From the NCBI GenBank assembly GCA_963726255.1, contig CAVSBL010000002.1:1952001-2016000 (forward strand): a DNA stretch of 64,000 bases, written 5' to 3'. This DNA is from Candidatus Bathyarchaeota archaeon (GTDB lineage: Archaea > Thermoproteota > Bathyarchaeia > 40CM-2-53-6). Below are positions 19,987 to 51,452 of the stretch, piece by piece (position 1 is the first letter of the stretch; every line of letters begins with the position of its first letter). Position numbers and translations under genes: made by a program. The notes beneath the pieces were generated by a model that made no database searches, was not told the origin of the DNA, and saw only the letters and a list, made by a program, of their open reading frames with translations.

Positions 19987-20006
19987 ACATCCTGCCTAAC
20001 AATTTT

Positions 20007-20843: not shown

Positions 20844-20856
20844 GGAAGGATATGGC

Positions 20857-21156: not shown

Positions 21157-21198
21157 CAATCTCGGACCGAATATTGTCCTAGTCATTTCGCTTTAAAA
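21149..21198 (+). promoter_or_regulatory. Duplicated promoter/operator, copy B
   Basis: GATTTTGACAATCTCGGACCGAATATTGTCCTAGTCATTTCGCTTTAAAA; TATA about 28 nt before GTG 21220. Confidence 0.75.
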
Positions 21199-21219
21199 GC
21201 ATTTGAAACAGCGCTTACG

Positions 21220-28553: not shown

Positions 28554-29877
28554 ACTGAGCCCCCAAATCAAAATCCTTGAGTCGAATTATCCCAATCGCA
28601 AGCTTCCGGAGCATCGTGTTGAACAGTTGCTGAAGAATGCTTTTCCGGTTTTCTTCAACCTTGATTTTTCTGTCTAGAGACATCAACAAGTTAACTATTT
28701 CCTGTTGCTCGGGGATTGGCGGCAATGGAATCTGAAAGGTCCTTAGTCTTGTGGCGCTGATATTTGATTGACCGACTGCCCTGCTTGCGAGACCCTTGAG
28801 TCTTCGTTGGCTATTGGCCCAGTTCAGATAGTAGTTTACAAACTGTGGAAGGACTTGCTTTGGGTCGGTTTGTAGTCTTATCAGATAGGATGCGAAAACG
28901 AGCTCGCCTTCAAGGTCGAAAAACGATGTCTTCCCAACCAAATCAATGCTGTTCGTTCTATTGAACAATAGATCGCCTTTCTTCAACCGAAATCGGCGAA
29001 ATGTTTCCTCATCAAGATCTACATATTGCACATCGTCTAGCACCAAATCTCCATCTTCGAGGTTGTTCATCCGAAGTATAGGATACTGGCCTTCTTTACT
29101 TCCCTTCAAGGATAGACCATATTGAGCGACGGTAAGGACTTCGCTCAGAGTTGTAGGTTTCCATTTCTCAGGTACCGCGCCAATTTCTCCCCCTTCTTTG
29201 TACTTGGTAGGGTAAACGCCGCTAGTCAATAGCTTGTGCATAAGCGATTTCTTCAGATTTCTGATGGCCAGGAGCAATAGATCTTGCTTGTATACTGCCT
29301 GCTGGATCTTGGAAAGGACAAGAGAGATACTTTGTTGCTCATGAAGAGGCGGTTTCGGCAACACAAACGACTGAAGCCTACCCTGCGAGAGGTTAGGTAT
29401 TGTTGTCTTGATCCCTTCACCTGCATAGAGTCCGAGTTGAAGAAAAGCAGTCTGCATCCAGTACATGTAATATTCTGGACAAATGTCATCCCTCCGCTTG
29501 CGCAGACGATGAATGTGGTTCTGATGGGCACAGACTTCTAACTCGCCCCTCCAGATCGCCGTTCGACCAACTTCGCCCCCTTCGCAAACAAGAATGTCAT
29601 TTGGCTCAAGCCGTAATCTCGAAAGTTCCTGAGCAGTAAAATGCATATGATCCAGTGTTGAGAGGTCAATGCGGCCCCAAAGGACGTTCAGCGTGCGAAG
29701 AAAGGGATACTGCGGTTGTCTTGCGCGGCCCGCTGGCGACATAGCTTTTCCTTGTTGAATGTCAAATGCGTCGCCGAGCGCAACAGTTTCCCAATCTTCC
29801 GGTATTGGGCCGACTTCGCTATCCTTTACTCCCTCTGTTCTAGCTGCCAGAACTTCCATGCTCAATGTAACCTCCAT
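28543..29877 (-). CDS. hsdS: Type I specificity subunit
   Basis: IPEDWE, two TRDs, PPLHEQ and PPIPEQQEIV conserved repeats. Confidence 0.95.
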   Translation of the reverse strand: MEVTLSMEVLAARTEGVKDSEVGPIPEDWETVALGDAFDIQQGKAMSPAGRARQPQYPFLRTLNVLWGRIDLSTLDHMHFTAQELSRLRLEPNDILVCEGGEVGRTAIWRGELEVCAHQNHIHRLRKRRDDICPEYYMYWMQTAFLQLGLYAGEGIKTTIPNLSQGRLQSFVLPKPPLHEQQSISLVLSKIQQAVYKQDLLLLAIRNLKKSLMHKLLTSGVYPTKYKEGGEIGAVPEKWKPTTLSEVLTVAQYGLSLKGSKEGQYPILRMNNLEDGDLVLDDVQYVDLDEETFRRFRLKKGDLLFNRTNSIDLVGKTSFFDLEGELVFASYLIRLQTDPKQVLPQFVNYYLNWANSQRRLKGLASRAVGQSNISATRLRTFQIPLPPIPEQQEIVNLLMSLDRKIKVEENRKSILQQLFNTMLRKLAIGIIRLKDFDLGAQYAS

Positions 29878-31408
29878 AATTCATCTTTCGAAGAATCGAA
29901 TCCAACTCAACATCAATCTCCCTTCTCTCTTCTTCGGCTTGAGTGAGCTCGGCGATGGCCTCGTCTATCGGGAGATACTCCTCTTCGCTGTCAACTGCAA
30001 CGTACTTAGCAGGCCCCAGATTGTAATCATTCTTGGTGGCCTGTTCGTTAGTGATGACTTTGCTGATTTTTTCCATGTCTTTCCAATTCGCGAAAACGTC
30101 CAGGATTCTATCGATGCATTTGCCAGTAAGATAGTTCTTAGGTCCTTCCTTGATGAACTCTTTAGAAGCATTGACCAGTAGAATCTGACCCTTGTGTTTC
30201 TTGGCTTTGTTAATGACTACAATGTTTCCTGGAGCGGTCGTGTTATAGAACAGGTTCTCGGGGAGGAGTATGACGGCCTCCAGGAAATCCTTGTCCACGA
30301 ATTCCTTTCTGATTTGCTTCTCCTTGTCAGTTCCGGCTTTTCCACTGCCTCTTGACACTGTTCCCGTATCTATGACTACAACAAGTCTGCCGCCATCTTC
30401 AAGAGAGGCGAACATGTGTTGGATCCACCCCCAGTCTGCAGAGCTCTTGGGTGGCATGCCGAAAAGGAACCTGTTATAGGAGTCGCTCTTGTAGAAATCA
30501 TCATCATAACCAGGTTGCCTCCACATGGGATTTGCAGTAACCTTGTGGAATGTCTTGAGAGCATTTTCGTGCAAGAATTTTGGATTCTTCAGCGTGTCGC
30601 CGACTCTTATCTCTCCCTCCATATCGTGAATGAACATGTTCATCCTTGCCATGGCATATGTTACAGGATTGAGCTCTTGACCGAAGAGACGCAAGGGTAC
30701 CTTCTCGGAACCGTTCCTCTCTTTGAGAACTAGCTGACATTTTATGAGCAGCCCTCCAGACCCGCATGCGGGGTCGTAAATCTCCTCGCCTTCCTTTGGA
30801 TCTGCAAGATGGGCCATCAGCCAGCCCACTTCTTTCGGCGTGTAGAACTCTCCGGCGCTTGAACCGGAACCCTCCGCAAATTTTCTCAAGAGATACTCGT
30901 AGGCCCTACCAAGTATGTCGGGCTCGACATCTTTCAGTCCCAACCTGTGGCGATTCAGGATTTCGATTAAGCTGCTTATTCTTCCGTCATCGAGAATTCT
31001 TTCCCCGCTGATTGTAGCATTGAAGTCTACGACATCGACGACGCCTTGTAGTTTGGGATTCTCCTTTGCGATTAGGCGCAGGGTCTTGCTGAGTTCCTCG
31101 CCGATGTTCTGCGTGAGCTTTCTGATGTCACGCCAAGTACAATTCGGGGGGAGGTAGAATCGTATGAGATTCCTGTCGTTTTCAATCAGTTCTCTAACGG
31201 CATTCTCGTCTCCAAGTTCAGTTTTGAGTCCACTGATTTCGTCCTCAAACACATCCGACAATCTCTTGAAAAACAGCAGCGGCAGAATGTAATCCTTGAA
31301 TTTAGGGGCATCCACCGGTCCCCTGATACTGCAGGCTGCATCCCACAACCACTGCTCCAGTTCTCGCAGGTTTAGCTTACCAACAGCCAGTTTTTCTTGC
31401 ATGCTCAT
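29840..31408 (-). CDS. hsdM: Type I modification methyltransferase
   Basis: LWDAACSIRG, GEFYTP, YDPACGSGG, ANPMW (motif IV), LPENLFYNT. Confidence 0.95.
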   Translation of the reverse strand: MSMQEKLAVGKLNLRELEQWLWDAACSIRGPVDAPKFKDYILPLLFFKRLSDVFEDEISGLKTELGDENAVRELIENDRNLIRFYLPPNCTWRDIRKLTQNIGEELSKTLRLIAKENPKLQGVVDVVDFNATISGERILDDGRISSLIEILNRHRLGLKDVEPDILGRAYEYLLRKFAEGSGSSAGEFYTPKEVGWLMAHLADPKEGEEIYDPACGSGGLLIKCQLVLKERNGSEKVPLRLFGQELNPVTYAMARMNMFIHDMEGEIRVGDTLKNPKFLHENALKTFHKVTANPMWRQPGYDDDFYKSDSYNRFLFGMPPKSSADWGWIQHMFASLEDGGRLVVVIDTGTVSRGSGKAGTDKEKQIRKEFVDKDFLEAVILLPENLFYNTTAPGNIVVINKAKKHKGQILLVNASKEFIKEGPKNYLTGKCIDRILDVFANWKDMEKISKVITNEQATKNDYNLGPAKYVAVDSEEEYLPIDEAIAELTQAEEERREIDVELDSILRKMNYGGYIEHGSSGS

Positions 31409-31601: not shown

Positions 31602-33011
31602 TCATTCCAGCGCTGCACTCGCTACAGTGCCAGTTACATCTGTAAGCTTCAGTTCGAAATCCCTGGTAACATCGTCGGCGCCACTGAGTGCATGAGATGC
31701 TTCGTGCAATAGCGTCCCAGCATACTTGTCGAGAGAGCGGAGAGCGCTTCGCTTGACGATAATTCTGCCACTTCCAGCCTCCCATAACCCATCGTCTTCA
31801 ACAAACGACCCTAGCTTCTTCCTCATCGTCTCCGAAACCTTGATCTCCTTGACAATTCTTGGCTTGCCGCCAATGAGTCTGAGAATTTCGTCAGTCTTGT
31901 CAAACACTTTTCTCTCTGATTCCTTCAACTCTCTGGGATTTACAAACTTGAATTGGAAACTTTCGTGGTATTCGGTCACGAACTGGCCCAGGTCTCTAAT
32001 CGGATTTCCAGCGACATCCACCGAGCCGTGTATCCGTTCCCTGAGGTTTTCCGGTATGGTAACTATCTTGTAATGTGCGGCCCTTGCTTCGTCGACCATC
32101 ATGGTTTCGGTAATCATCTGATTTGGGGTGAGGAATACAACCTTCTCCAGCGAATTGAGGATTTTGACCGCATGCTCCTGAACGTCCATCCATTTTAATT
32201 CGTCATGCGTAGTTCCAGCGTCGAAGTTCTTCAGGTCGTCTGTTAATGCCTGCGCGACTTCCTTGCCGCTGCATGACAATAGGATGGCTCTTATCCGTTC
32301 AGAATAGGCGCTTCTTCCAACATTGGACCGCTCCCTGTTCAGAGCCCTCTTGATTGCTTCTGTGATTGAGATTATGTTGTAACTGAAAAGAAAATTCTCT
32401 TCTTCAGCGACCTTCACTCCGTTGATGTAGATTCTTCCATTCTTTCCTTTCTTCCTGAGGACGTCGCCGTATTTCGCTCCTTCAATCGAAGCTTCTCCTG
32501 AAAACTTCAAGAACAGGTCTTTCGCCTTCTCGACATCTTCGCGGGTCACCCCATGGAAAATGAATTCCGTGCCGGTGAATTTCGGGTCGGATGGTGGCGA
32601 TATGTATGCATGAAGCGTCTTTACGTCCTCGAAGCCATGCTTCTGCACTCTGCCTAGCGTGATATCTCCGTGCTTGGATCTGATGAAGACCTTCACGTCG
32701 TGCCTGTCGAAAGTTGCGAGAGCATCTTTGAGTCCTATTCCGAATTTGCCAATCATGTTCGGGTTTGACAATTTCTCTGCGTTTTCATTTTGAGTCAGAT
32801 GGTCGTGCCGAAGCCCTCGTCCATAATCTCTGATGTGCCAGTTGCCTGACGAATCTTCCGTTATCTCTATGTCTTTCGTGTTAGTGAGTAATTGCTCGTC
32901 CAATGCGTTTGCAATCACTTCCCGCAGTCCATGATGGACTTCCCAATCTTCCAGAATCTTCTCTATGTTAAGGTCAAACGGCTTCGCGTCCGCAGCGCTC
33001 ATTGTCGACAT
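31602..33011 (-). CDS. GHKL (HATPase/MORC/Hsp90-like) ATPase with C-terminal HEXXH motif
   Basis: REVIANALD, IRDYGRG, IGKFGIGLK, GTEF; C-terminal LLHEASH; ATG 1 bp after the rad50 stop. Confidence 0.8.
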   Translation of the reverse strand: MSTMSAADAKPFDLNIEKILEDWEVHHGLREVIANALDEQLLTNTKDIEITEDSSGNWHIRDYGRGLRHDHLTQNENAEKLSNPNMIGKFGIGLKDALATFDRHDVKVFIRSKHGDITLGRVQKHGFEDVKTLHAYISPPSDPKFTGTEFIFHGVTREDVEKAKDLFLKFSGEASIEGAKYGDVLRKKGKNGRIYINGVKVAEEENFLFSYNIISITEAIKRALNRERSNVGRSAYSERIRAILLSCSGKEVAQALTDDLKNFDAGTTHDELKWMDVQEHAVKILNSLEKVVFLTPNQMITETMMVDEARAAHYKIVTIPENLRERIHGSVDVAGNPIRDLGQFVTEYHESFQFKFVNPRELKESERKVFDKTDEILRLIGGKPRIVKEIKVSETMRKKLGSFVEDDGLWEAGSGRIIVKRSALRSLDKYAGTLLHEASHALSGADDVTRDFELKLTDVTGTVASAALE

Positions 33012-33012
33012 C

Positions 33013-35046
33013 TCATGATCCAGCTCCTGATTGGATTTTGGATTTACCATTTGCCTTGTCGACTCTGATGATTTGGTCGGCAAAGCTTTCGAGTTCTGTT
33101 TCATGGGAGACAAGTACGACTTGCGGACACTGCAGCTCGTGAAGGATATCACGAATTTTGTACAGCTGCTCCTTGCTGAAACCATCAGTCGGTTCGTCCA
33201 ATATGAGAAGGTTCGACTTCATGCCGATTGAGACTTGCTGCACGACACTATTGAGAGCAAGTCTGTAGGCAAGCGCGGCGCTCGTCTTCTCTCCACCGCT
33301 TAGGAAGTCTACATCCTGGTCATAGCCGTCCTGCGTAACGGTCGGCGTGAAATCTTCGTCTATTCCAACATCTTTCGTTGGGTCCTCTACAAGAAGGTTG
33401 AACCACTTCTGGAACTGGCTGCTGAACCCTTGATTGATTGCAACAAGCACCTGCCTTTCGATAAGCGCCAAGGTATTGACGAAATAGTCGTTCAACCAGA
33501 CGTGGAAATCCTTGAGCCTCATCGCAGCGTTCTTCGCGTCATCCATCTTCTTGATAGCCTTGTTCAAATCATCAATTTCATTCGCCAGGTCGGTGATTCT
33601 CTGCCTGAATGAGGAGAGATTGTTTCGGGTTTCCTTCAGCGATTCCTCTTTCCCAACGATTGACTTGTCCAGTTCATCGATCTTTATTTGGACGTCCTTG
33701 AGACTTTCTGCTTCCTTCTTCTTTCCTCCGAGTTCTTTGCCGAGCTCATCCGTCTTTTCTTTCAGCTTGGAGATCTGCGGCCCATTAGTGCCCAGAGTAT
33801 GTTTGTATTCTTTTGCTCGCTCGCTGAGTTGATTCAACGTTTCCTGATTGGCGTCAAACTTCTCCAGAACTTTGAGCAATCCACGCGCTCTTTTCGTTTC
33901 GTCCTCACAGTCCTTGAGGGCTTTGCTGGCCTTGCGCAGTTCCTCCTGCTTCTTCTTCACAAGCGCGTGAAAGTCCTTCCCTGTTGCGGGTCTGTCGCAG
34001 GTCGGACATTTCTTGTCCTTCTCTATCTTTTCATAGTCTTCGAGTTTGTCGCTTATCCTGTTCTCGGCTTTTCCGAGCTTCTTCTCCTGTGTTTGGAGGT
34101 CCTCGATTCTCTTTTCGAGTTGGTCGGTCGTCTGTGTAGTTGGGCGTTTTTCCTTCTCAAGCGGTTCCATCTTCTTTTGGAGTTCCGCGAGTTTTGTCTT
34201 GGCTTCGTCAGAGGCGTCGGTGAGGGTTTTGACGTCGAAGGTTTTGTCATCAATTTGCTTCTGAATTTGCGGCATCTCAGCCTGAAGCTTGTTGAGCTTG
34301 ATCTTATCGTCCTGCAGTCTACCTAAATCCTTACCCAGTCGATCAATGTCGCCTTGCAATCCAGTTTCTGTCTTTTCGAATTCGCCAACCTTCTTCGTCT
34401 TCTCGGTCTTCTCTGCGTCTCTGTCACCCAGTGTCTTCTTCTTGTCTTCGAGTCCCTTGGCTTCCGTGTCTAGCTGCGTTATTTTGTGTTCAATTCTAAG
34501 GTCCAACTTGCCCGCATTGTCCTGAGCAGTCTTGTATTCTTCAAGTCTGAACGCTTTCCTCAGGGTCTGAAGTCTCATGTCGGGCTTGTAGGATAAGATA
34601 GCCTTCATTTCCTCCTGGGGGGTAAAAACTGCGTATCTGTAAATCCAGCTCTGTGCCTTCGGGTCTTCCGGCTCATTGAAGTGGAGAATTTCGAGAATCC
34701 TTTGCTTCAGCTCAGAAGCTTCTAGGCTCAGCTTGCCGCTCGGCTCGATGATATGTCCGGAGCCCTGATGGATTGACTTTGACTTGCGTTCGAGGGTCCT
34801 GTGGACCGTGTAGTTCTGGCCATTTACTTCGAAAGTCAGCGTGACGTTACCTTCCTTTTGGCCAAGCCTGAGCAATGAGCCTCCCTTCAGAGATCCCAGA
34901 CCGAAGAGAGCGAACTCAATAGCCATGAGCACGGTCGATTTGCCCGAGCCGCTGGCGCCTTCAAAGAGGATGGTCCCTTGCGGGAAATCCAGTTTGAGCT
35001 TGTCATAGCTGCGGATGTTTTCGAGTTCAAGGCTCTTGAGCATCAT
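33013..35046 (-). CDS. rad50: Rad50/SbcC ATPase (short, 677 aa)
   Basis: NIRSY, GASGSGKST, Q-loop FTPQEE, zinc hook CPTC, LSGGE, LILDEPT, VSH. Confidence 0.93.
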   Translation of the reverse strand: MMLKSLELENIRSYDKLKLDFPQGTILFEGASGSGKSTVLMAIEFALFGLGSLKGGSLLRLGQKEGNVTLTFEVNGQNYTVHRTLERKSKSIHQGSGHIIEPSGKLSLEASELKQRILEILHFNEPEDPKAQSWIYRYAVFTPQEEMKAILSYKPDMRLQTLRKAFRLEEYKTAQDNAGKLDLRIEHKITQLDTEAKGLEDKKKTLGDRDAEKTEKTKKVGEFEKTETGLQGDIDRLGKDLGRLQDDKIKLNKLQAEMPQIQKQIDDKTFDVKTLTDASDEAKTKLAELQKKMEPLEKEKRPTTQTTDQLEKRIEDLQTQEKKLGKAENRISDKLEDYEKIEKDKKCPTCDRPATGKDFHALVKKKQEELRKASKALKDCEDETKRARGLLKVLEKFDANQETLNQLSERAKEYKHTLGTNGPQISKLKEKTDELGKELGGKKKEAESLKDVQIKIDELDKSIVGKEESLKETRNNLSSFRQRITDLANEIDDLNKAIKKMDDAKNAAMRLKDFHVWLNDYFVNTLALIERQVLVAINQGFSSQFQKWFNLLVEDPTKDVGIDEDFTPTVTQDGYDQDVDFLSGGEKTSAALAYRLALNSVVQQVSIGMKSNLLILDEPTDGFSKEQLYKIRDILHELQCPQVVLVSHETELESFADQIIRVDKANGKSKIQSGAGS

Positions 35047-36302
35047 GGCGAGAGCACCTCCCCGAGTCCGAGTGTTTCGATTGCCTGCTCTTTCATATGC
35101 TCATCGTAGCTTTGCTTCGACTCCCCAGCCTTTGCCGCTCTTCGGAGGACTTTCAGCAAAGTGATGGCAAGCTTGGCCCCATCTTCCTCCTTGAGAGAAT
35201 TCTCCGAGACCTTGACAGTGCCGATGTTTTCCTGCAGCAGCCTGCTCTCGATTGTCTCGACGTCTTCTCCGGCAGCTTTGATTGCGGCAAACTCCTTCGA
35301 TGTCAGGCCATGCCTGTTTACGTACGCCGAGATTGCGCCTCGTTCCAGGAGGTTTTGTCTTAGCCTTGCAAAATTGATATCAGACGTCTTTCCGCCAGAG
35401 AGCTCGCCTCTCACTCGGAGCATCATGACTTTATTCTTGACATCGAGCGAGTCCAAGCTTTCCTCCAGCCAAGCTTCTGACTCATGCGCGTTTCTGTCCT
35501 CTACGTCAAAATCCTTGAAAACAAAGTCGCAGACCTGGATGGGTACGAACCGGACAGAATCGATTGTGCTGCCGAAAGAGACTATGTAGAAGCCACGTTT
35601 TGCGCCTTTGCCGCTCGCCTCATGGTCGCGAGTCTGGCTTCCAAAGAGGGCTCCTGGAAAAACCACATGATTGTAGCCTGGCAGATTCTTCTCAAGTCTT
35701 TCATGTATGTGACCGCCGGCATAGTAGTCGAATCCCTTGGGTAGCAGAGAGATCGGAATAGACTCCATGTCCGACAGATACTCGGGCTTTAACTCGTCTA
35801 AGCCTGCGTGAAATGCGAAAATCCTGAAGCCTTTTTCGGCCTCCAGACTCGCACGATCGAGCATCTCATAGTATTCGCGGTCGAGTCCGCCTTTTCTCCC
35901 AGAGATACCCACTAGCTTTGCTCCGGTCTTGGGATCAACAAAAAAATGAAGTCTGAGCTTCTCTTCTTCTATGTCGCCGCTTACTATCCTCTTGATGAGA
36001 CCGGCGCTCTCAATGATGTCGACAACAGACTTGCCATTCGGAGTAAAGTCATGGCTCCCGTAGATCACATAAACGGGAATGCCGCGGTCGGCGATTTGTT
36101 TCAGCTTACGAATTGCATCGTCGACAACTCCGAGGTCTGGAATGCTGACGTGAAACAAGTCCCCGCAAATCAGGATAAAGTCTACGTTCTCTTTGAAGCA
36201 TTCGTCAACTGCTTGCTCGAAAGCTCGCATCTCAAACTTCGATAGCACCGGGTCCGAGTTCGCTCCCAAGTGAATATCTGCGATGTGTGCAAATTTCGCC
36301 AT
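35043..36302 (-). CDS. mre11: Mre11/SbcD nuclease
   Basis: ADIHLG, CGDLFH, GSHD, FH, YYAGGHIH, FPG motifs. Confidence 0.93.
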   Translation of the reverse strand: MAKFAHIADIHLGANSDPVLSKFEMRAFEQAVDECFKENVDFILICGDLFHVSIPDLGVVDDAIRKLKQIADRGIPVYVIYGSHDFTPNGKSVVDIIESAGLIKRIVSGDIEEEKLRLHFFVDPKTGAKLVGISGRKGGLDREYYEMLDRASLEAEKGFRIFAFHAGLDELKPEYLSDMESIPISLLPKGFDYYAGGHIHERLEKNLPGYNHVVFPGALFGSQTRDHEASGKGAKRGFYIVSFGSTIDSVRFVPIQVCDFVFKDFDVEDRNAHESEAWLEESLDSLDVKNKVMMLRVRGELSGGKTSDINFARLRQNLLERGAISAYVNRHGLTSKEFAAIKAAGEDVETIESRLLQENIGTVKVSENSLKEEDGAKLAITLLKVLRRAAKAGESKQSYDEHMKEQAIETLGLGEVLSP

Positions 36303-36308
36303 CTGGAA

Positions 36309-37847
36309 TCACCTTGTGAATTGAACCTTCTGCTTCTTCCCTTGCTCAGTGTGCTGGCTGGCCACGTAGTCCTCAAACTTCGGAATCTGAATGGGGACGG
36401 CGAACTTCGCGAACACGCTACTGAGGATCGCTTCGCCCTTGTCCAAGCTTGCTATGTTCCTGTCGTCCTGCGAAAGGTCTTGTGAAGCGCTGTCAATGAT
36501 TGAATGCCGCTCTGCAGACATCTCATTGCCCAGAATGATCTTCGTGTTGAGATTGGTCAAGATGTCCCTGGGTATCGCACTAGTGATTTGCGTTACCGCA
36601 ATCAGGCCTATCTTGAATTTTCTTCCCTCGCGCGCTATGGTGCTGTATACATTGTCGCCGGCTTTCTCCAGCCTGTCCTGACCGAGAACCCTGGGCGCTT
36701 CTTCTATGGCTATGCTCACAACTGGCTTGTCATCGAGACTTCCCTCCGCCTTGTAGCTTTGGTATCTGTCTAGAATTTCGTTGGCGATAATGCTCCCAAC
36801 GAGTAGTTCGGCTTCATCACCGATCTTTGAAGTGTCAACGACAACTATCTTTCCCTTCTCAAGGGCGTTCACAATATCGGATATTGTCGACTCTCCAGCG
36901 CTGTCTGAAAAGATCCTGTTCGAGCAGATGAGATTTCCATCGGAGTCTACCCGAATGCCGAACTTGGTCCTGAAGATTCTTTGGAGTACCGTTTTTGTTG
37001 TATCCTTCACCCCGTTGACGTCCGTTCCTCGTACTATGTTGTCGATCCAGTCTTGTCGGAACTCTTGGAAGTAGGCTGTGAAGGCTTGTTCCTGTGCATC
37101 TGTCAATCTCACAATGCCGTTGAGATGGTCGGGCGTGATAGAACGGAGATTTATGACAAGGGTGTTTGTACCTGCAGGAGCATTCACTGAATAATAGAGC
37201 AGGTTCCCTTTCGCATCATTGTGGTCTTTCAGGCCGATGGAACTTCTACCGTAATACTCGTCGTGCGGATCGAGTACGAGAATCCCAAATTTCTTCTGCC
37301 CTAGAACGCTCCAAAGCATGACTTTGACTAGATTGCTTTTTCCACGGCCGGTCGTCGACGGGATGAGTACGTGGTGTCGGAGCGCTTCCTCTCCGTCAAG
37401 ATACACATCAGCATCGATTATCTTGCTTCCGCTTCTGACCTTTCCAAGGTACAGAGGATTTGCAGGGCGGGTAAGGAACTTGAGGTCATCTGCGTTGACA
37501 GACCTCACTGTACCAAAGAACTCGGGGAGAATCTTCGGCGAATGAGGAGTTTCCTTGATATCAAGGACGGCCTTGCATTCGGCCAAGATGTAGTTGCGCA
37601 ATCCTGGCTCAAGGAACTCAAGGCTTGCACCGAGTCCCTCAAGCTTCATGCCAGCAAGGTGTTCCCTTGTGGACTGTGGAATCTGACTGCCGTAGAGCAG
37701 ATTATAGACTTGAAGAATAAGAAAACCTTCACTCGTCTCAGCGACGAGGAGGTCACCCAGTTCGATTTTTGTGCCGCTCTTCTCACGAATAATGACCTGA
37801 GCGACTTGCCCGCCGACAATCTGGCCACAAATATCTGTATCTTCCAT
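36309..37847 (-). CDS. herA: HerA helicase/translocase
   Basis: HAS barrel; [37 protein letters not shown]. Confidence 0.93.
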
Positions 37848-37850
37848 TTC

Positions 37851-38966
37851 TTACCACTCCTTCAAATTATCAAGAACGTCATGAGCATCGAGCGATTCAA
37901 TGTGACGGGAGAATTTTGGCCACGAGCCATTCTTGGAAATCTCGGAAAGCAGCATCACACGATGCAGCTCTACATCCGAACCGATGACCTTTGCATTTGC
38001 ATCCGCATCAACGAGCCCGTACGGATAGCCTGGAAAAGCTATGTCACAAGAGTTTTCGGACAGCCCTGAAAAGATCTCACATAATTGCTCTTCAGTGAGT
38101 TTTCCTGCCTGATTGGCCTGAATCTCGTATCTGAAGATGCGCATGCTTTCCGGCCTGAGCCTAAGCAGGAAGATCGCAGCCTCATGTTCAGGGCTCTTCG
38201 ACTTGGCAATCGGATAGTAGTACCAAGGCGGCTCGACGCTCTTGTCTTCCGCGAGCTTCCTGACAGCTCCTAGCAAAGACAGACCTGTGGTGGTGAACAA
38301 ATTGCTGGTTTTGGCCAGACCAGTGTAGAGCACGCCTCTCTTTCTCGCTGCGGAATATCCCTCCCTCGCGTAGTTGTCCTCATTCTTGAAAGCGGTCCTA
38401 AGCGTACCATCCATTACGATAATGTCGCCATCAGATAGTACATTCTCGACTACGCTGGTCGCTAGCCTCCATTCCGCGAATCTCCGTGCGATGGTCGCAA
38501 CTCTTCTGATATCAGCTCTTGATGTGCCCTGCATTAATCGCTGGTCGAACGAGCTAAAAGAAAGGTCCGCTTGGTCGGGCAGAAACGCCTCATTGCCTTC
38601 AACAAGCGGGAACAACGATGTCTCGAAGACTATCTCATTACCTTCGAAACGAGCCACGGTTGCAGAAACGAACTCGACCTTCTGAGGTATGCTTGCCTCG
38701 TGATTCACCCGCTTAGGTCCGCAGAAGACATTGAAGTACAGCCTATTGAACTGGACCGAGAAGTTGGGTGCCTGCAGCAGCGGCTGATTACCGCCGTCCA
38801 CGAAGGCAATCCTCCGTGCTGAATGTGAGTGCTTGAGAGGATGAAAATTCGACAAACCAAGAGGAACGGTGTCGTAGTTGTGGCTGCTTAGGTCGGGGTT
38901 TCCGAGATCCATCTCGCTAACTCGTGCGTCAAGATCTTGTGCAACCCTTTCGGCAAATTGGCTCAT
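37851..38966 (-). CDS. nurA: NurA 5'-3' nuclease
   Basis: AFVDGG, RRFAEW, VMDGTL, GLAKTS, PGYPYGLVDADANA. Confidence 0.9.
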   Translation of the reverse strand: MSQFAERVAQDLDARVSEMDLGNPDLSSHNYDTVPLGLSNFHPLKHSHSARRIAFVDGGNQPLLQAPNFSVQFNRLYFNVFCGPKRVNHEASIPQKVEFVSATVARFEGNEIVFETSLFPLVEGNEAFLPDQADLSFSSFDQRLMQGTSRADIRRVATIARRFAEWRLATSVVENVLSDGDIIVMDGTLRTAFKNEDNYAREGYSAARKRGVLYTGLAKTSNLFTTTGLSLLGAVRKLAEDKSVEPPWYYYPIAKSKSPEHEAAIFLLRLRPESMRIFRYEIQANQAGKLTEEQLCEIFSGLSENSCDIAFPGYPYGLVDADANAKVIGSDVELHRVMLLSEISKNGSWPKFSRHIESLDAHDVLDNLKEW

Positions 38967-38977
38967 ACCATTCTCAC

Positions 38978-41272
38978 CTATAGCAACACCATGTTATCTT
39001 GAACCATGACGCCAGCAGAGATGTTCTCGCCGAGGTTCTGCGTCAGTATCTGAGGGAGGGCAAACTTGCCCTGCCTGAAAATCGAAGACCAATTCAAATG
39101 AGTAAGCCTGTAGTATTCATCGATGATCTGTTTGATGTGGGGTCTTGGTGTGGCTTCACAATTGATGCAAAGATGCTTCTTGAGCGATATCTCGATGGGC
39201 TGTGCGGTTCCAAACGGAGCTGCGCACGAAACGAGCAAACCTACATTATCGTTGTAGGCAATGGCGGTGCCTTCTCGAACATTGGTCGTCGAATCACCGG
39301 TCTGTTCGATGATGCGCTTGTTGGGGGACTTGTTTACTCCTATGACGTCAATGATCAAGCTCTTCGGATAAGTCTCCTTTCTGCTCAAGAGGCTTGGTAT
39401 CGGTTCCTTTCTCTCTTCTGGGATGCCGTGTAGTATGACGCTCTCAATCATGTCTGCCTCGTCTTCTCTTATGACGCCGTCTTTGGCGAACACGAGACGG
39501 CGGAATGAAAATACTCGACCGTCGATGTGGCCGAACTTCTGGCCAAAAAGTGCTATCTTGCTGAGCAGGTCGATGAGAACGTCGTAGAAACCAGACGGAG
39601 TCAGCTTTTCGCCGCCAATCGGCTTGGTGCCGGTAGCGATGTATCTTCCGTAGGAGTCAGTCATGGCACTATAGGCGGTCGCAGAGGCCTTGAGCTTAGG
39701 TCTTCTAGATACGTCGTGATATGCATAGCATGAACAGCCGGGGGTTATGCCAAAGATTGCTGAGTCAGCGGGCTCCTTCAGAATCCACGCCGCAGTCCCC
39801 GTTCCTCCGAACTTGATGTAGCACTGAGAAGCGGTGTTCACTTTAATGCCGTACGATGCTGCAGATGATGAAAGGATTTTTCGAAGCGTTCCAAGCGCGA
39901 TTGCTTGTGAGGGGAAAGGTTCCGTTCCGAACAGTCTTTCAAAGAGTTTCTCGCGTGAGCGATAGTAGACTTCGGACGCAAAAGTGTCTGGAAGTACAAT
40001 GAAGGCAAGCACTCTCTGGTTTGTCTCGGCTCGGAGTTGGGTTATTGCTGAGGTGTAGTCCGCAACGCTCTCTCCACCTGTATCTATGAAGCCGTCCTCG
40101 CCGATCGTGGTTGCTCTTTGAAGCGTTCCAAAACCTAGTTCACCGTACGTGTCCTCAAGCGAGTTCAGAGCAACCGAAATTTCGTCTCTAGTGCCGTTGT
40201 GGATTACGATGTATTTGCCGTCCAGCGACCCAGCAAAAGGACCATGTTGTTTGAGAGAGGCGTGTATCGAAGCGACGGGTGTGATTGCTTCATTGCCGAC
40301 AACCAACGCAAGTTGTGAACGTGGAGCAAGAGATAATTCCTCGAATCTGACGGAAGACGGGCTCGATGGGCCTTCGAGCTCAATTCTCTCGCCGATGAAT
40401 TTCAGGTCGGCTAGCTTCTCGCGTACAAAATCCGTTGCGAAGTTAATTCGCAAAGCTGGGTCTTTCTTGAGATTGCTTGGTAGTGGTTCTCCCTGCCTAA
40501 ACTCTTTGAACACGCATGACTTCGGGTAGGAAACCTTGGACCGAAAGAGAGGGACGAATACTTCGAGCATTTCTTCATTCGGGTCAACAAAGTCAACATG
40601 ATGTTTGATGCGCCAGTAATCAGAAGTCTTGCACTTGCCTTCGCCAAGAGGGAATTCGAGCTGATCTGCTTTCTCAGATTTCCTCCCAACGAGCACTCCA
40701 TAGATCCAATGCGGGAGAACACGGACTTTCACTTCAGACTCTTCTGCCATGTGTACGGCTTCTGCAATTTGTGACTCTGAAATGGGGGTCATGATTCGAG
40801 TTCTGATATCTACCCAAATCGAAAGGCGCGAATCAACAATTTCTGATTGAATTCGGTAGGCGCGTTTCATGTTCGAGGATTTATCTTGAATGTCGCGGGC
40901 CAGAACGTAGCGATCCCCCGTCTTGAGGAAGCCTCTGCTGAGAATATGGTACCTAACTCGGTTCTGCCAGGCCATCTCCACTGCAGCCATCGGGACTGAG
41001 CTCATGGGTTCAACCTTTAGTCCGAGGCTGTCGAACCTGACTAACATTTTCACGAGTTGCTGTGGCTCTGCGTCTAGGACAACAATGTCAGACTCCTTGG
41101 TCTGGAAAACCGCAGCGTCAAAACCATTTCTGATGATTGTGGCACAAACCGCTTGGAGCTTGGCCCGCTTCTCCTGCTCCATCTCCATAACGATGGAAGA
41201 GAATTTGATGCTGCTGCCTGAGACTTGTTGCGGGACTCGAGTTTTTGATTTGTACAAGTTGAGCACTTTCAC
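38978..41272 (-). CDS. ago: Long prokaryotic Argonaute (N-L1-PAZ-L2-MID-PIWI)
   Basis: L1 SIWVDIRTRI; PAZ-like SDYWRIKHHVDFVDPNEEML...YPKSC; MID VYYRSR...PSQ...N.ASQCYIKFGG; PIWI HDVS, GGE, FAKDG, VNK...R, GTAQP, YRLTHLNW; hydrophobic C-terminus. Confidence 0.88.
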   Translation of the reverse strand: MKVLNLYKSKTRVPQQVSGSSIKFSSIVMEMEQEKRAKLQAVCATIIRNGFDAAVFQTKESDIVVLDAEPQQLVKMLVRFDSLGLKVEPMSSVPMAAVEMAWQNRVRYHILSRGFLKTGDRYVLARDIQDKSSNMKRAYRIQSEIVDSRLSIWVDIRTRIMTPISESQIAEAVHMAEESEVKVRVLPHWIYGVLVGRKSEKADQLEFPLGEGKCKTSDYWRIKHHVDFVDPNEEMLEVFVPLFRSKVSYPKSCVFKEFRQGEPLPSNLKKDPALRINFATDFVREKLADLKFIGERIELEGPSSPSSVRFEELSLAPRSQLALVVGNEAITPVASIHASLKQHGPFAGSLDGKYIVIHNGTRDEISVALNSLEDTYGELGFGTLQRATTIGEDGFIDTGGESVADYTSAITQLRAETNQRVLAFIVLPDTFASEVYYRSREKLFERLFGTEPFPSQAIALGTLRKILSSSAASYGIKVNTASQCYIKFGGTGTAAWILKEPADSAIFGITPGCSCYAYHDVSRRPKLKASATAYSAMTDSYGRYIATGTKPIGGEKLTPSGFYDVLIDLLSKIALFGQKFGHIDGRVFSFRRLVFAKDGVIREDEADMIESVILHGIPEERKEPIPSLLSRKETYPKSLIIDVIGVNKSPNKRIIEQTGDSTTNVREGTAIAYNDNVGLLVSCAAPFGTAQPIEISLKKHLCINCEATPRPHIKQIIDEYYRLTHLNWSSIFRQGKFALPQILTQNLGENISAGVMVQDNMVLL

Positions 41273-42012
41273 TTTCTCCCCTCCAGCTTGGTTTGGAACG
41301 TTGATGCCTGAGTTCGTGTCAAGTATGGGCCTAGGATTCTGTCGGCGACGTACCTCAGAATCGCCGCCTGTTCCGAGAGAGTGAATGTGTCGGCGGCTGC
41401 GTGAATGGTCACTACCCCCGTCTCACGGAAACCCACTCTCGGCTCAGAATCGAGCTGGGTAAGCGGCACTTTCACAAATGCAAGCGGCTCGCCGCCGTAG
41501 GCCGCCCAGAATTCAGTCTCGGTGACGGACGCTCGGCTCGTGGCTGAAATCAGATCAGGTTCCTGTTTCTTCGACGGTTTGACGTCCACCTTGATGACTT
41601 CTGGCACGGAATCGATGACAGCTTTCAGAGTGCTTTGGTTGAACTTCAGTATGGAAGTCGCAAGGCCTGGCAAAAGATTATGCTCCATTACGGACTGGAG
41701 ACGGTCTGCTATGGTGCTGGGGCATACCCCGACGAATAGAAAACCAGAGTCAAGGATAACTACCGGCACTCTCTTGAGTTCAACAATCGATTTCTTTGCC
41801 ACGCTTCCTTTCTCGATGGTCTCGTATTCATGCGGATACGCGAATCCCAGTTCGAACACAATTCCTCCCTCAACTTGGTGAATGCTGTCAGGCATTGTCC
41901 CCTCGGTAAAATCCGGAATTTCGGACTCGACCTGAATCGACTTCACTTTCTGGGATAGAGAACGGTCTTTTGCAACATTCTTCGGGATTGGTGTGATGTT
42001 GTAGCTAGGCAA
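41269..42012 (-). CDS. Argonaute-associated protein of unknown function (247 aa)
   Basis: TTG start with GGAGG SD overlapping the upstream stop; its TGA overlaps the Ago GTG; C-terminus QTKLEGRK. Confidence 0.75.
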   Translation of the reverse strand: MPSYNITPIPKNVAKDRSLSQKVKSIQVESEIPDFTEGTMPDSIHQVEGGIVFELGFAYPHEYETIEKGSVAKKSIVELKRVPVVILDSGFLFVGVCPSTIADRLQSVMEHNLLPGLATSILKFNQSTLKAVIDSVPEVIKVDVKPSKKQEPDLISATSRASVTETEFWAAYGGEPLAFVKVPLTQLDSEPRVGFRETGVVTIHAAADTFTLSEQAAILRYVADRILGPYLTRTQASTFQTKLEGRK

Positions 42013-43126
42013 GAAACTCGCCCTCCTGTGCAACTTTCGTCTGAACAAACGGGACGACTTCTGTTTTCACTTTGTAAAATGCGGAACGACCTATCCTCTC
42101 GGTTGTCAGGAGCTTCATTGATGAAAGAGTCGATAGATGATACGAGATTGTTGCCTTATCTTTGCCAAACTTCTCGGTCAGGGTCGAGGGTCTGGTACCC
42201 CGCTCATCATGTTCGAGCAGCATGTGCTTGAGCAATAGCGTGTGAAATTCTGAAAGCTGGGACAGACGTTCCTGAATGCCCTTTATGCCCAACCTGTCCG
42301 CAGCGCTTTCTATCGATTCGCGGTCGACAGTCTTCTTGTGCTGGAGGAAAGTCTCTTCAAGTCCTTGAACGAAAAGCCGCAGTGCCACTCCAGGCACTCC
42401 GAAAGATAATCGAAATACTGCATCGGCAACTTCCTCGGGGACTGTGAACTCTGCGTTGCTAATTATGGCAGAGAAAGAATCGATGATCTCGGTGATGTCG
42501 TCCTTGGACAGCGGATCCAAGTAGACCTGTTTGCTGACAGGTATCACGTCGCTCAGTGAGTCTCGCTGGACGTTCCATGATTCCGGAGTCCATGCGGTGA
42601 TGATGACCCCATGCCCCATAGCTCGAACGATCTCTTTGATGGAACTCGCTGGGTCTTTGTCCTTGTCGAATGAATCCACAACCAGCAGATCCAGTTTCTC
42701 TTTTCGAATCTCGTCAAGAAAGGTGAAGAACCAATTCGGCTCTTCTTTTTGTTCGTCGATTTCCACGAACCTACACGCATCAACGAGTCGCTTCTTAATT
42801 TTTGATTGGATTTTTTCCAGGGAAGAACAGAGCGCGTTCAGGAGAGCAGTCTTTCCGGACTGCTCGACACCTATAACAGGAATATGATAGATGCCTTCCC
42901 GTTCTTTCTCAAAGTAGCCGATGAACTCGGCAGTCTTCTGTAGAGCTTCTTCGCGATCCGCGAGAAGGCTCGGGTTCTCGGTAATCGATTTCGTGAGGTC
43001 GGTTGTCGTCAACAAGCGAGGCTCGATTCGCTGCTCCTTTAGCCAGACCTGCAGGCTGCTGACTTCGCCACGCAGACCCTTCTCGTACGCTTCTTCGAAC
43101 AAATCCAACGTTTGACGTTTATTCAT
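42005..43126 (-). CDS. P-loop (AAA-like) NTPase fused to a C-terminal ArsR-like wHTH, putative operon regulator
   Basis: GVEQSGKT, LLVVD, GVPG; C-terminal KATISYHLSTL...GRSAFY. Confidence 0.75.
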   Translation of the reverse strand: MNKRQTLDLFEEAYEKGLRGEVSSLQVWLKEQRIEPRLLTTTDLTKSITENPSLLADREEALQKTAEFIGYFEKEREGIYHIPVIGVEQSGKTALLNALCSSLEKIQSKIKKRLVDACRFVEIDEQKEEPNWFFTFLDEIRKEKLDLLVVDSFDKDKDPASSIKEIVRAMGHGVIITAWTPESWNVQRDSLSDVIPVSKQVYLDPLSKDDITEIIDSFSAIISNAEFTVPEEVADAVFRLSFGVPGVALRLFVQGLEETFLQHKKTVDRESIESAADRLGIKGIQERLSQLSEFHTLLLKHMLLEHDERGTRPSTLTEKFGKDKATISYHLSTLSSMKLLTTERIGRSAFYKVKTEVVPFVQTKVAQEGEFLA

Positions 43127-43274
43127 ACCAATCAAACTATATTTAAGCTGTTCTTACTAATCAAACAATTATTGCTTCAAGTATTTAAATCTATCATCGG
43201 CCGGTTCTGTCTAATCTTCGGTAGCTTCGGGTTCTTCTTCGGGCTGTCCAAACTCGGTTGCTGGCAGTAGTTGA

Positions 43275-43959: not shown

Positions 43960-46326
43960 TCAGCTTCGTTCAAGAAACCTATGGAAATAGGCCGTTTTCT
44001 TCGGGTTCATGGGGGGGATGTCAGCTAACTTTCTCTCAGTATCACCGATCGAGAAATCCAATGCAAATCGGTGGCTGTCCTTGATCGCTAGCAACATCCT
44101 GCCGAGCACTTGGATACTATCTGGTTCTGTTTGAGAAATCAAGTTGTCGCATAACCTAGCCACCTCGTCATCCACGTCATTGGGGCTGAGGAAATGGGTT
44201 AACATCCCGCAGTAGGTTTCTATGAAGTCCTCTTCGTCGAATCCTTTCTCGGGATAATACCGCTCGGATAGCTCCTTCACGAATTCTCTTGTTTCATGAT
44301 AATTGCTTCCAATCGTCATTTCGGAGCACGAAACCAGGTCCCTCAAGTACAGGTGCGGAAACGGATAGCCGTAGCAGTAGGACGCGGCAAGCAATCGGGC
44401 GCAGAAGCTTACAATGTCTGACTTGGCGCAGTCACTTCCTTGTATGTTCTGGAGGTTTGTGTCGATGGTCTGGGAAAGCCTGTCCAGCATATAGGCATCA
44501 ACGCCTTGCCTGAAGATTCTCAGGAAAAAATCCATGAGGATAGATTGAGCGTTAAGGATCGAGTTGGACGGTGTCGGGCTCTTCACGGTGGAGGCTGAAA
44601 GCATGATGATCTTGTTCAGGTTGGACAGTATTCTCACCACGAGTTTTGTCCGCTCTTCCTCCTGATCCAAGTAGCTTGGGTATCTAGGGTGAGGCGATAG
44701 CTCCTCCTCATCGCCTGAAAATGATGTCTCGGTGTCCCTGAGCATACTCTTCTTGGAGTTTGTCCAGCGCAGTAATGCTTCAAGGTCGCGCAAAAGCGAG
44801 TCCGGACTTGATATTCCGCTCATTCTGCTGGGTAGATAATGCTTCCTCTCCTCCTTCGTCTCGCTGGGAGCGCTCGTTGTCATCTCTGGTTCAAGCGTTC
44901 TCCTTGCAAGCCCGCTGATGATTGCCAACACTTCTGAAATGTCCACCGAGAAATCCCGGTACAGTTTCCTAGAGATTTCTTCAAAGGAGGCTTGGGACCT
45001 TGCAATTCGCTTGATGAAGTAGTGCTTGTCGAAGAATATGCGCCTCCGTCCGCTCCTTCCTCCGCATGTGACCACGACCTCCTTGGGATTTCCCTGCGGT
45101 ATGTCCAAAGCAATCTCACGCGTGACGGGACCAAATTCGCCTTCAATTGTTCCCGCTGTTTCCTCCATCGTAACTACGGCCGTTGCTGGGCCCTTCAATG
45201 GCTCGGTTCTCACCGTGAGAGTGCGTGAAATGTCGTCGAAATCGGCAGAGAGTATCCTTAACGAGTCACTGGCAGGCGACTCCATTGGTCCGGATGCTCT
45301 GAGCAGGCTCCGGACATCCTTGGGCTCTGTGAGAGCGATGCTATCCAGAATTTCGGCGAAATCTTGCCCTCTATGCAGCACTGCACATTCGAGATTTCCG
45401 GATTTAGCCGTCGCAAGCAGTGCGCTTGATGTCAGATTCGGAGAACCCACGAGAAGATGCTTCTCAGGCCCGTCAATGCAAATCACCTTTGAGTGGAACT
45501 GGCGTGAGGGTTCGCTGAACTTAGCTTCCACCACGCGAAATCTAACCCCTTTTGATGCCAGGAGCTGTTCGTAGCGTGATATGTCTGTCAAGTTGTGATT
45601 ACCTCTCTGGAGCGCCAGCGTAACGCTCTCGGTCTTGACTCCGTCAGTAAGCTTGTCCACGACTATGGGATCTTGCGAAAGAAAAGGAGCCATCAGAAAT
45701 ACATCTGTGGTCTTTGCTTGTCCCAAAAGCTCCAGCATCTGCTCCAGAATCGGTCTATTCAGGTTGTGCATAATCGAAAAGCTTCTGTCATTCGGTTCGG
45801 CTGTGACTTTTGCCAGTTGGAATGCTTTAATCAAGTCTTGAAAGAGGGAGGTGACCTTCCGTTCCTCAACGTAACCTTGCAATAGGCCCGCAACCAGTTC
45901 TCCCAGGGTCCTGTACAATGCCCCGTCGTTGGCCGCGCCTAAGCTGACTTTGGTGATGAGTTCCGCATTGCTTGTGAAACCGTGCAGCGTGATATTTCCG
46001 CTTCCTATGTATAATGTGCCTGTGCGTCCGTTTTCCGACAGGAAAAGGAACAGCTTCGGGTGAAATACTCCATTAGAAAGATAAACCGGGACGAGATGGT
46101 AGCTCCTTCCGGTGTGATTCGTAAATCTGTCATAGCTTCTTTCGTATTGTGCGCCGTCGACCAGAACGACGATTTCTGCTCCCGGATTGTTCTCTTGAAG
46201 GGCTTTCAGCAGGCAGATGTCGAAAAAGAAAGGATCGAAGCAGTAAGTAGTCAACACAATGTAGTCGTTGTTCTTCTGCTTCTCTGTAAGTTCCTCGATG
46301 AGGTCTATTCGATGCGCTTTAGCCAT
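43960..46326 (-). CDS. Large protein with two PLD-like (HxK) domains, putative nuclease
   Basis: VFHPKLFL...GSGNIT...N.E and FHSKVI...GSPNLT...NLE. Confidence 0.8.
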   Translation of the reverse strand: MAKAHRIDLIEELTEKQKNNDYIVLTTYCFDPFFFDICLLKALQENNPGAEIVVLVDGAQYERSYDRFTNHTGRSYHLVPVYLSNGVFHPKLFLFLSENGRTGTLYIGSGNITLHGFTSNAELITKVSLGAANDGALYRTLGELVAGLLQGYVEERKVTSLFQDLIKAFQLAKVTAEPNDRSFSIMHNLNRPILEQMLELLGQAKTTDVFLMAPFLSQDPIVVDKLTDGVKTESVTLALQRGNHNLTDISRYEQLLASKGVRFRVVEAKFSEPSRQFHSKVICIDGPEKHLLVGSPNLTSSALLATAKSGNLECAVLHRGQDFAEILDSIALTEPKDVRSLLRASGPMESPASDSLRILSADFDDISRTLTVRTEPLKGPATAVVTMEETAGTIEGEFGPVTREIALDIPQGNPKEVVVTCGGRSGRRRIFFDKHYFIKRIARSQASFEEISRKLYRDFSVDISEVLAIISGLARRTLEPEMTTSAPSETKEERKHYLPSRMSGISSPDSLLRDLEALLRWTNSKKSMLRDTETSFSGDEEELSPHPRYPSYLDQEEERTKLVVRILSNLNKIIMLSASTVKSPTPSNSILNAQSILMDFFLRIFRQGVDAYMLDRLSQTIDTNLQNIQGSDCAKSDIVSFCARLLAASYCYGYPFPHLYLRDLVSCSEMTIGSNYHETREFVKELSERYYPEKGFDEEDFIETYCGMLTHFLSPNDVDDEVARLCDNLISQTEPDSIQVLGRMLLAIKDSHRFALDFSIGDTERKLADIPPMNPKKTAYFHRFLERS

Positions 46327-51402: not shown

Positions 51403-51452
51403 TGATTGTACCCACGATATTGGTGGGTACAAATCCCACCGGCCCCACCACT
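51403..51452 (+). repeat. attR-side repeat with inverted arm
   Basis: TGATTGTACCCACGA, palindromic core TGTACCCAC-GATATTG-GTGGGTACA, then ...ATCCCACCGGCCCCACCACT. Confidence 0.88.

Follow-up and report, generated by a model that had tools for sequence, protein, structure and literature searches.

The window analysed here is a stretch of 64,000 nucleotides (nt) from a Candidatus Bathyarchaeota archaeon (assembly GCA_963726255.1, contig CAVSBL010000002.1, positions 1,952,001 to 2,016,000 of the forward strand). On its minus strand, between window positions 31602 and 43135, eight open reading frames (ORFs) lie head to tail in an operon that joins a long prokaryotic Argonaute (pAgo) to a NurA-HerA-Mre11-Rad50 cassette, the genes of a DNA end-resection machine. 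The host is an archaeon by its small- and large-subunit ribosomal RNA, and its genome (G000) is 98.5% complete with 9.3% contamination.

The first gene of the operon (42005-43135) encodes an AAA-type ATPase of 376 amino acids (aa) with a C-terminal winged helix. It is followed by a gene for a 259-aa protein with a predicted RdgC-like fold (41269-42048), whose stop overlaps the start of ago, and by ago itself (38978-41272; 764 aa, GTG start), recognized by a PADLOC pAgo profile and by structure comparison. Then come the genes for the NurA nuclease (37851-38966; 371 aa, PF09376), the hexameric translocase/helicase HerA (36309-37847; 512 aa, PF01935), the Mre11 nuclease (35043-36302; 419 aa, PF00149 and NF041029) and Rad50, an ATPase with short coiled coils and a zinc hook (33013-35046; 677 aa, AAA_23/SMC_N and NF003034). 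The last and variable gene (31602-33185) encodes a GHKL-type ATPase with a C-terminal HExxH motif, and its longest ORF overlaps rad50. By ORF coordinates, the 259-aa gene and ago overlap by 4 nt, as do mre11 and rad50; the gaps measure 11 nt between ago and nurA, 3 nt between nurA and herA and 6 nt between herA and mre11. All eight tightly packed, same-strand genes of the first-pass annotation, which a model had made from the sequence, were recovered with matching spacing.

The 764-aa protein has no Pfam match at E<=0.01. A single-sequence search of the PDB returned chance-level matches only, and a profile search of the PDB returned one weak match, to the PAZ region of VbAgo. The PADLOC pAgo profile PDLC02436, on the other hand, matches residues 339-753 with E=1.5e-44. 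We obtained an AlphaFold2 model from 32 homologues (predicted local distance difference test score, pLDDT, 80.1; predicted template modelling score, pTM, 0.77). Compared by Foldseek, it gives 174 structural matches at E<=0.001. The best is PliAgo (7r8i; E=4e-29, template modelling score, TM, 0.60-0.63), followed by KmAgo, CbAgo, Siwi and hAgo2, and the alignments to full-length long Agos span about 800-900 columns. The model displays the full N-L1-PAZ-L2-MID-PIWI architecture of a long Ago; the first-pass identification of the protein as a long pAgo is borne out by a predicted structure that matches full-length Agos end to end. We discarded a short-pAgo system of the SPARTA, SPARSA or SPARDA type, as the Ago is full-length and neither PADLOC nor Pfam finds an APAZ, TIR or SIR2 match among its neighbours.

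Three PIWI residues, D520, E555 and D598, are invariant in all 46 full-length Agos of the clade. In the model they sit at strand ends or in a loop before a helix, as expected. Candidates for the fourth PIWI residue, chosen by position only, are E719 (in 45/46) and H700 (in 44/46). Candidate residues of the MID pocket are similarly conserved: Y436, Q456 and Q483 in 46/46, and K487 in 45/46. Because there is no useful sequence match between this Ago and the PDB, the assignment of catalytic residues rests on conservation and predicted secondary structure. The conserved positions suggest a catalytically competent long pAgo that binds the 5' end of its guide. The clade is rare and isolated, with 100 representatives at E<=1e-3 and 33 at E<=1e-30 among 1.84 billion cluster representatives.

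Each of the four cassette proteins carries the hallmarks of its family. NurA scores 39 bits with PF09376 (cut-off 21). HerA scores 97.4 bits with PF01935 (cut-off 23.2), has a Walker A motif GRGKS at residue 167 and also matches the PADLOC HerA models. Mre11 matches PF00149 at 59.3 bits, with the metal-binding motifs DIH, GDLFH, GSHD and GHIH intact. In Rad50, a protein of 677 aa, SMC_N extends over residues 2-668 and is accompanied by AAA_23 and SbcC_Walker_B; the Walker A motif GASGSGKS, the LSGGE motif and a zinc hook CPTC at residues 347-350 are all present. The equivalog cut-offs are not reached by any of them: NurA has 18.7 bits with NurA_Sulf (NCBIfam; cut-off 400), HerA 102.5 with HerA_Thermprot (800), Mre11 122 with NF041029 (600) and Rad50 202 with NF003034 (700). 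Scoring so far under these cut-offs, the four proteins are family members rather than close orthologues of the studied Pyrococcus, Sulfolobus and Haloferax proteins. NurA homologues of 39-60% identity lie directly after Ago in related loci, and HerA is 54-68% identical to the HerAs of Ago-linked loci.

We gathered 60 related Ago loci, 15 from species genomes and 45 from metagenomes. The labels of their metagenome-assembled genomes (MAGs) include Nitrososphaerales, Bathyarchaeia, Hydrothermarchaeota, Archaeoglobales, Halobellus and Haloquadratum, and two bacterial MAGs, of Dehalococcoidia and Gammaproteobacteria, also carry an Ago of this clade. By tblastn and an iterated hidden Markov model search (jackhmmer), homologues of NurA, HerA, Mre11 or Rad50 come after Ago at 44 of the 53 loci with at least 1.2 kb of downstream sequence. 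At 37 of the 44 loci with at least 3 kb, at least one of the four stands directly after Ago on the same strand. The remaining seven lack cassette genes (L037, L038, L040, L045, L060, L063 and L086); L038 and L060 are one contig, and L045 and L086 hold broken Ago genes.

Since many loci are close relatives, the 46 full-length Agos were clustered at 70% identity into 24 clusters, 22 of them informative. NurA, HerA, Mre11 or Rad50 genes accompany Ago in 18 of the 22, one has an AddA-like gene instead, and three have neither. Some labels were given by analogy, to a same-sized ORF in the same slot (L041 and L072-74 from L042; L079-81 from L077), and the identity of NurA at four divergent loci (L077, L044, L053 and L042) is backed by Pfam. 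The linkage spans the deepest branching in the Ago tree, as the L077 group, at 28-30% identity, also reads Ago-NurA-HerA-Mre11-Rad50. The synteny pointed out at the window's single locus is therefore a recurrent one. A haloarchaeal and gammaproteobacterial group has the order Ago-Mre11-Rad50-NurA-(207 aa)-HerA, with a Rad50 of 899 aa and a Pfam zinc hook. Throughout the related loci Ago stands upstream of the cassette, never within it. Coupling to end-resection genes as a conserved property of this Ago clade is supported by these gene neighbourhoods.

Some of the related loci hold further genes of note. In L057 (13383-15400) and L082 (17235-19676), another Mre11/Rad50-like pair or SMC-like ATPase lies a few kb past the first Rad50. 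At the Dehalococcoidia locus (L040:1566-13709), Ago stands alone among a SNF2 helicase with NOV_C, DUF1156, an M78 peptidase and a GmrSD-like nuclease, in a DISARM-like setting. The Archaeoglobales locus (L038:16119-18440, minus strand) carries, 4 kb downstream and on the opposite strand, a 773-aa ORF of Ago size that has no Pfam match.

At two loci a different helicase-nuclease takes a place in the unit. In the bathyarchaeal L035, Ago is followed by a 901-aa Cas4-nuclease/SF1-helicase with a weak Dna2 match, then by Mre11, Rad50 and an HNH gene. In the hydrothermarchaeal L037, the gene after Ago encodes an AddA-type UvrD/PD-(D/E)XK protein of 1000 aa. Non-homologous but analogous helicase-nucleases in the cassette's place are what a functional unit of Ago plus resection predicts.

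Both partners have also been exchanged. L058:6107-8394 and L059:1555-3842 are 89.6% identical in DNA over precisely the Ago gene; no similarity is detectable to its left or right, and the cassettes differ. This alignment suggests a recent exchange whose breakpoints fall at the gene borders. The Ago-linked HerAs fall into at least 5 lineages in the HerA trees, which contradicts a single dedicated lineage of Ago-linked cassettes. Ago and HerA trees disagree as well: the HerA of L057 groups with those of L047-49, and its Ago does not. As quickly computed trees with long branches, they are reliable in their well-supported groupings only, and their details are unsure. As far as sequences can tell, the pattern is that of a functional requirement for an end-resection helicase-nuclease beside Ago, not of simple co-inheritance.

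Three accessory genes complete the operon. The AAA-type protein has a Walker A motif GVEQSGKT and matches PF01637 at E=0.0097; its C-terminus matches an ArsR/SmtB helix-turn-helix model (NF033788, E=3.5e-8) and Csa3/CasR-type PADLOC models. Its homologues adjoin Ago as 32 ORFs of the related loci, either co-directional or divergent. We speculate that it is probably a regulator or a loader.

The 259-aa protein has no match in Pfam, PADLOC, NCBIfam or PHROGs. Its AlphaFold2 model, built from 17 homologues, has a pLDDT of 84.8, and Foldseek places E. coli RdgC (2owl; E=1.5e-7, probability 1.00, TM 0.50) first among its structural matches, followed by CENP-L. Of the named ESM Atlas clusters, CENP-L (0.84) and RdgC (0.82) come closest, which we take as leads only. 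We rejected membership of the RdgC sequence family PF04381, as no Pfam family is matched at E<=0.01 and the resemblance is one of fold. With a fold match to RdgC and no profile match in four libraries, the protein is RdgC-like by fold only: on the evidence of the model, it is an RdgC-like DNA-binding protein by fold and not by sequence. It is also shorter than RdgC, which has about 300 aa. In related loci, 21 homologues lie directly upstream of Ago. RdgC restrains RecA; speculatively, its counterpart here may hold DNA or restrain recombination of resected ends.

The GHKL protein matches HATPase_c at E=0.006 only, and phrog_6077 at E=1e-23. It contains the Bergerat-like motifs EVIANALDE and DYGRG, and HEASH at residue 494. 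The true start of its gene is probably near 33011, at an internal methionine (residue 59) located 1 nt after rad50. Similar GHKL genes follow rad50 in L049, L055, L051 and L052; those of L051 and L052 match HATPase_c_3, and that of L051 also matches WLM weakly. Speculatively, the gene is a variable add-on to the operon. The slot after rad50 varies between loci, with a GHKL-HExxH, OLD, HNH or SMC-like gene, and seems to collect variable effectors. In two cassettes without Ago, an OLD-family nuclease (AAA_15 and TOPRIM) begins ~10-75 nt after rad50 (L028:15286-17310 in G014; L029:15281-17161 in G002). In the Ago-linked locus L051 such a nuclease (19828-21636) comes after the GHKL gene.

The whole operon lies in an inserted island. 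G021 is the closest congener, with 92-93% protein identity; there, 2.8 kb separate the genes that flank the island, compared with 38.7 kb in G000. DNA homology to G021 breaks at window position 15212 and resumes at 51580, which delimits an insertion of ~36.4 kb with the Ago operon and its cassette inside. Attachment-like (att-like) direct repeats of 46 nt (family D1, three copies) are found at its ends. The left copy (15258-15303, plus strand) resembles a tRNA 3' half, a second copy of it occupies 15881-15926, and the right copy (51403-51448, plus strand) is 89% identical to the left one. Beside the second copy, an integrase-like gene (15990-17489, plus strand) matches phrog_1 weakly, at E=4.6e-6 over residues 26-351; the ORF has no Pfam match, and its PDB sequence search was empty. 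ARAGORN and Rfam detect no intact tRNA at the repeats, and at the empty site of the congener there is a piece of a different gene instead of a clean attB. The insertion relative to G021, the flanking repeats and the weak integrase-like match together mark an integrative element or genomic island. Directly downstream of the operon, the same island carries the type I restriction-modification genes hsdR, hsdS and hsdM (25665-31408, minus strand; Pfam HSDR_N/SWI2_SNF2, Methylase_S and N6_Mtase), in agreement with the att-bounded element of the first-pass annotation.

Other island genes encode a YgjP/SprT-like peptidase, a Dam-type methylase, an 824-aa HerA-like protein and a 788-aa PLD-like protein. 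The 824-aa protein, a HerA/FtsK-like ATPase (DUF87, AAA_10), is encoded together with a 178-aa ORF at 21220-24227 on the plus strand; the two may be a separate HerA-based defence pair. The 788-aa protein has two PLD-like domains and is encoded with a 561-aa protein without family match at 43960-47990 on the minus strand, directly upstream of the Ago operon. These two genes may form another defence module. The Dam-type methylase gene (20007-20843) is bracketed by a 54-nt direct repeat, 94% identical between its copies (19937-19990 and 21149-21202), which may be a duplicated promoter or regulatory region. Just outside the island, a 124-nt tRNA match (13047-13170, plus strand; Rfam, 31.5 bits) is missed by ARAGORN, and its length suggests an intron-containing archaeal tRNA.

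Seen from the side of the cassette, the link with Ago is looser. In a sample of 400 further genomes of the phylum, 49 have a HerA of the same type (41-61% identity). We fetched 29 such loci; all of them keep the collinear order nurA-herA-mre11, and rad50 was seen in 26. Ago was found in none of these 400 genomes and in none of 40 closer relatives. This Ago, then, usually comes with resection genes, whereas the cassette usually comes without Ago. Three of the 40 relatives have an Ago-less cassette, at 37-66% identity: the congeners G014 and G002, and G034 from another family. An OLD-family nuclease and methyltransferases follow the cassette in G014 and G002, with an integrase nearby in G002.

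A search of 23 genomes of the genus found some form of Mre11-Rad50 in 7: G000, G014 and G002 carry the cassette type, and four others a second type. This second pair (Mre11 of about 385 aa, Rad50 of about 771 aa) occurs in the congeners G011, G001, G018 and G007 (4/22). In G011 and G001 it lies beside genes that are kept in G000, where the corresponding site (2250127-2253087 of contig C2) holds an unrelated 382-aa ORF; the site was compared between G000 and L092 (G011:C9), L093 (G001:C32) and L094 (G023:C25). In no genome of the genus did these queries detect both the G011-type Mre11 and the nurA-herA-mre11-rad50 cassette, and in 16 of the 23 they detected neither. That the cassette is merely the lineage's housekeeping operon does not, in our view, suffice as an explanation: only 3 of 40 relatives have the type, congeners use the other pair, and the unit lies in an insertion. 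In some other Ago carriers the Ago-linked genes are additional ones. Halobellus clavatus has a housekeeping Mre11 of 635 bits, above the cut-off, and another NurA, so that its Ago-linked Mre11 (69 bits) and NurA, which are divergent, are second copies. A second Mre11 besides the Ago-linked one is also present in G438 and G440.

A full-text literature search, with subscription-only papers outside its coverage, found no published pAgo operon with Mre11, Rad50, HerA or NurA. The first-pass annotation, too, had known of no characterized system with this architecture. The nearest functional parallel is CbAgo, whose guides arise at double-strand breaks in a RecBCD-linked manner, according to the available portion of a preprint (bioRxiv 10.1101/2020.03.01.971358). 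There, as would be the case here, a nuclease Ago takes small DNA guides from end processing by a helicase-nuclease. The CbAgo structure 6qzk matches our Ago model at E=2.8e-26, while sequence similarity between the two is undetectable by profile search. Unlike RecBCD, a host housekeeping enzyme encoded elsewhere, the archaeal-type end-processing genes share the ago operon and its island.

In thermophiles the order of the repair operon is herA-mre11-rad50-nurA. The window has nurA-herA-mre11-rad50 instead, with a Rad50 of only 677 aa and scores far below the equivalog cut-offs. The archaeal repair operon comprises the same four families in tight linkage, but no Ago, AAA-type winged-helix, RdgC-like or GHKL genes are described there in the accessible parts of its reports (PMC2288612, PMC3326311). 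HerA-based defence systems (NurA-HerA, Sir2-HerA and DUF4297-HerA) likewise combine a HerA translocase with a nuclease or effector against phage DNA, and bacterial NurA-HerA is anti-viral by itself, as stated in the consulted sections of a review (PMC13748450); unlike the present operon, they have two genes and neither Ago nor Mre11-Rad50.

A survey of pAgos (Ryazansky et al. 2018, mBio, PMC6299218), in the sections available to us, reports long pAgos co-encoded with putative helicases, PD-(D/E)XK nucleases and unspecified 'hydrolases and phosphatases', and such helicases and nucleases are thought to process targets. It also states that no defined operon structure is derivable for long pAgos other than those of the MID-OH type. 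Mre11, Rad50, SbcC, HerA, NurA and SMC are absent from its main text, and its supplementary orthogroup tables may list Mre11-like 'phosphatases' as neighbours of long pAgos. Its UvrD/PD-(D/E)XK operons resemble L037 of the present clade, which has such a neighbour. Ago-associated nucleases and helicases, and a link between Ago and RecBCD, are thus already known in principle.

What does the operon do? We lean, by a modest margin, towards a resection machine that supplies guides to Ago, a DNA-guided nuclease, or degrades its targets. As the pairing recurs across many distant microbes, Ago probably works with the resection machine, and the insertion with its type I restriction-modification and PLD-like neighbours is a defence setting. 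The substrates of Mre11-Rad50 and HerA-NurA would be DNA ends, either free or produced by Ago, on invading or multicopy DNA. Short single-stranded products would be loaded into Ago as 5'-phosphate guides, and Ago would then cut complementary DNA, each cut being a new entry point for the resection machine. Guide production and target destruction could in this way reinforce each other, as host RecBCD does for CbAgo. The choice between guide generation and target degradation is pure conjecture, and the data favour neither. A bolder version is possible, if doubtful: this Ago clade may be an obligate add-on to double-strand-break resection machines, docking on HerA-NurA or Mre11-Rad50, perhaps with the RdgC-like protein as a ring, and taking its DNA guides directly.

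Several observations weigh against cooperation between Ago and a resection machine of its own. No second Mre11 or Rad50 was found in the 98.5%-complete genome of the host, and in G437 and G439, which also carry Ago, the Ago-linked Mre11 is the only copy, within the limits that MAG incompleteness sets to all such statements. The first-pass annotation had proposed to look for a separate housekeeping locus; G000 has other HerA/NurA pairs besides the operon copies, but no other Mre11-Rad50 was found. Ago-less chromosomal cassettes of the same type and order are present in families f27 (28/32) and f21 (18/56), and the Ago-less HerAs of G014 and G002 nest within the Ago-linked HerA clade. Three Ago clusters (L038/L060, L040 and L063) have no resection-gene neighbour. 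Many of the loci come from metagenome contigs that are related to each other, so that counting locus by locus exaggerates how independent they are. For Ago, the fourth residue of the catalytic set and the type of guide are read from conservation, and the system is known here from genes and predicted structures. The initial proposal of a resectosome dedicated to Ago consequently survives in part: its coupling to the Ago clade is conserved, while its dedication is put in doubt by the host's having no other Mre11-Rad50 and by the many Ago-less copies. Being the host's only Mre11-Rad50, the cassette may do repair as well.

A repair function instead of defence is a rival reading, which we find unlikely on the whole. 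Here the operon would be a recombination-repair unit, with Ago and the RdgC-like protein as accessories of homologous recombination or chromosome processing. A possible task for Ago would be to cleave DNA at forks that have stalled or converge, or to clear DNA tangles, with the ends then passing to Mre11-Rad50 and HerA-NurA. With the sole Mre11-Rad50 of G000, G437 and G439 in it, this could be primarily a repair operon; other members of the phylum carry this type of cassette as an ordinary operon of the chromosome, Ago's upstream partner has the predicted fold of RdgC, a recombination-associated DNA-binding protein, and TtAgo has a role in finishing replication, cited in the part of a review that we consulted (PMC7776575). 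However, the island around the unit is an insertion that also holds type I restriction-modification and other defence-type genes. Ago is very patchy (0/40 relatives, 0/400 in the phylum sample), its clade spans archaeal phyla and two bacterial MAGs, and one member stands alone among DISARM-like and GmrSD genes. The presence of Mre11-Rad50 in just 7 of 23 genomes of the genus argues that it is not a fixed housekeeping need.

The same island setting could bring together genes that do not cooperate. A self-sufficient mobile NurA-HerA-Mre11-Rad50 module, beside which Ago tends to land, would explain the Ago-less cassettes of G014 and G002, with their OLD nuclease and methyltransferases and, in G002, an integrase near; it would fit the variable slot after rad50 (GHKL, OLD, HNH or SMC-like) and the anti-viral activity of bacterial NurA-HerA alone. 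Clustering in islands does not predict a shared gene order with overlaps or gaps of 4-25 nt, as seen in 18 of 22 Ago clusters, a linkage kept when Ago or cassette is exchanged, or Dna2-like and AddA-like substitutes at the same position, so that we hold mere neighbourhood to be quite improbable. We give still less weight to hitch-hiking on expression, in which a module of the AAA-type protein, the RdgC-like protein and Ago inserts upstream of damage-induced or constitutive resection operons and gains nothing but their regulation. The Dna2-like and AddA-like alternatives, and the insertion of the whole unit with its cassette included, are left unexplained by it, even if the constant position of Ago upstream of the cassette, never inside, and its movement as a discrete unit between L058 and L059 agree with it.

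Cooperation between Ago and the resection machine bears on how DNA-guided pAgos obtain their guides and tell self from foreign DNA. The best current answer, that host break-processing enzymes are involved, rests on few bacterial models. Here the cooperation would be written into the genome, in an Ago clade that stays attached to resection machinery through swaps of both partners. The operon offers a defined gene set for guide biogenesis, with one example in a cultured haloarchaeon, Halobellus clavatus. If Ago indeed docks on the resection machine, this would be the first prokaryotic Argonaute system to encode its own guide-biogenesis factory, and one machine would serve both repair and immunity wherever the cassette is the only Mre11-Rad50. 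More generally, the archaeal NurA-HerA-Mre11-Rad50 operon can move between genomes, occur in only some members of a genus and be linked with immunity.

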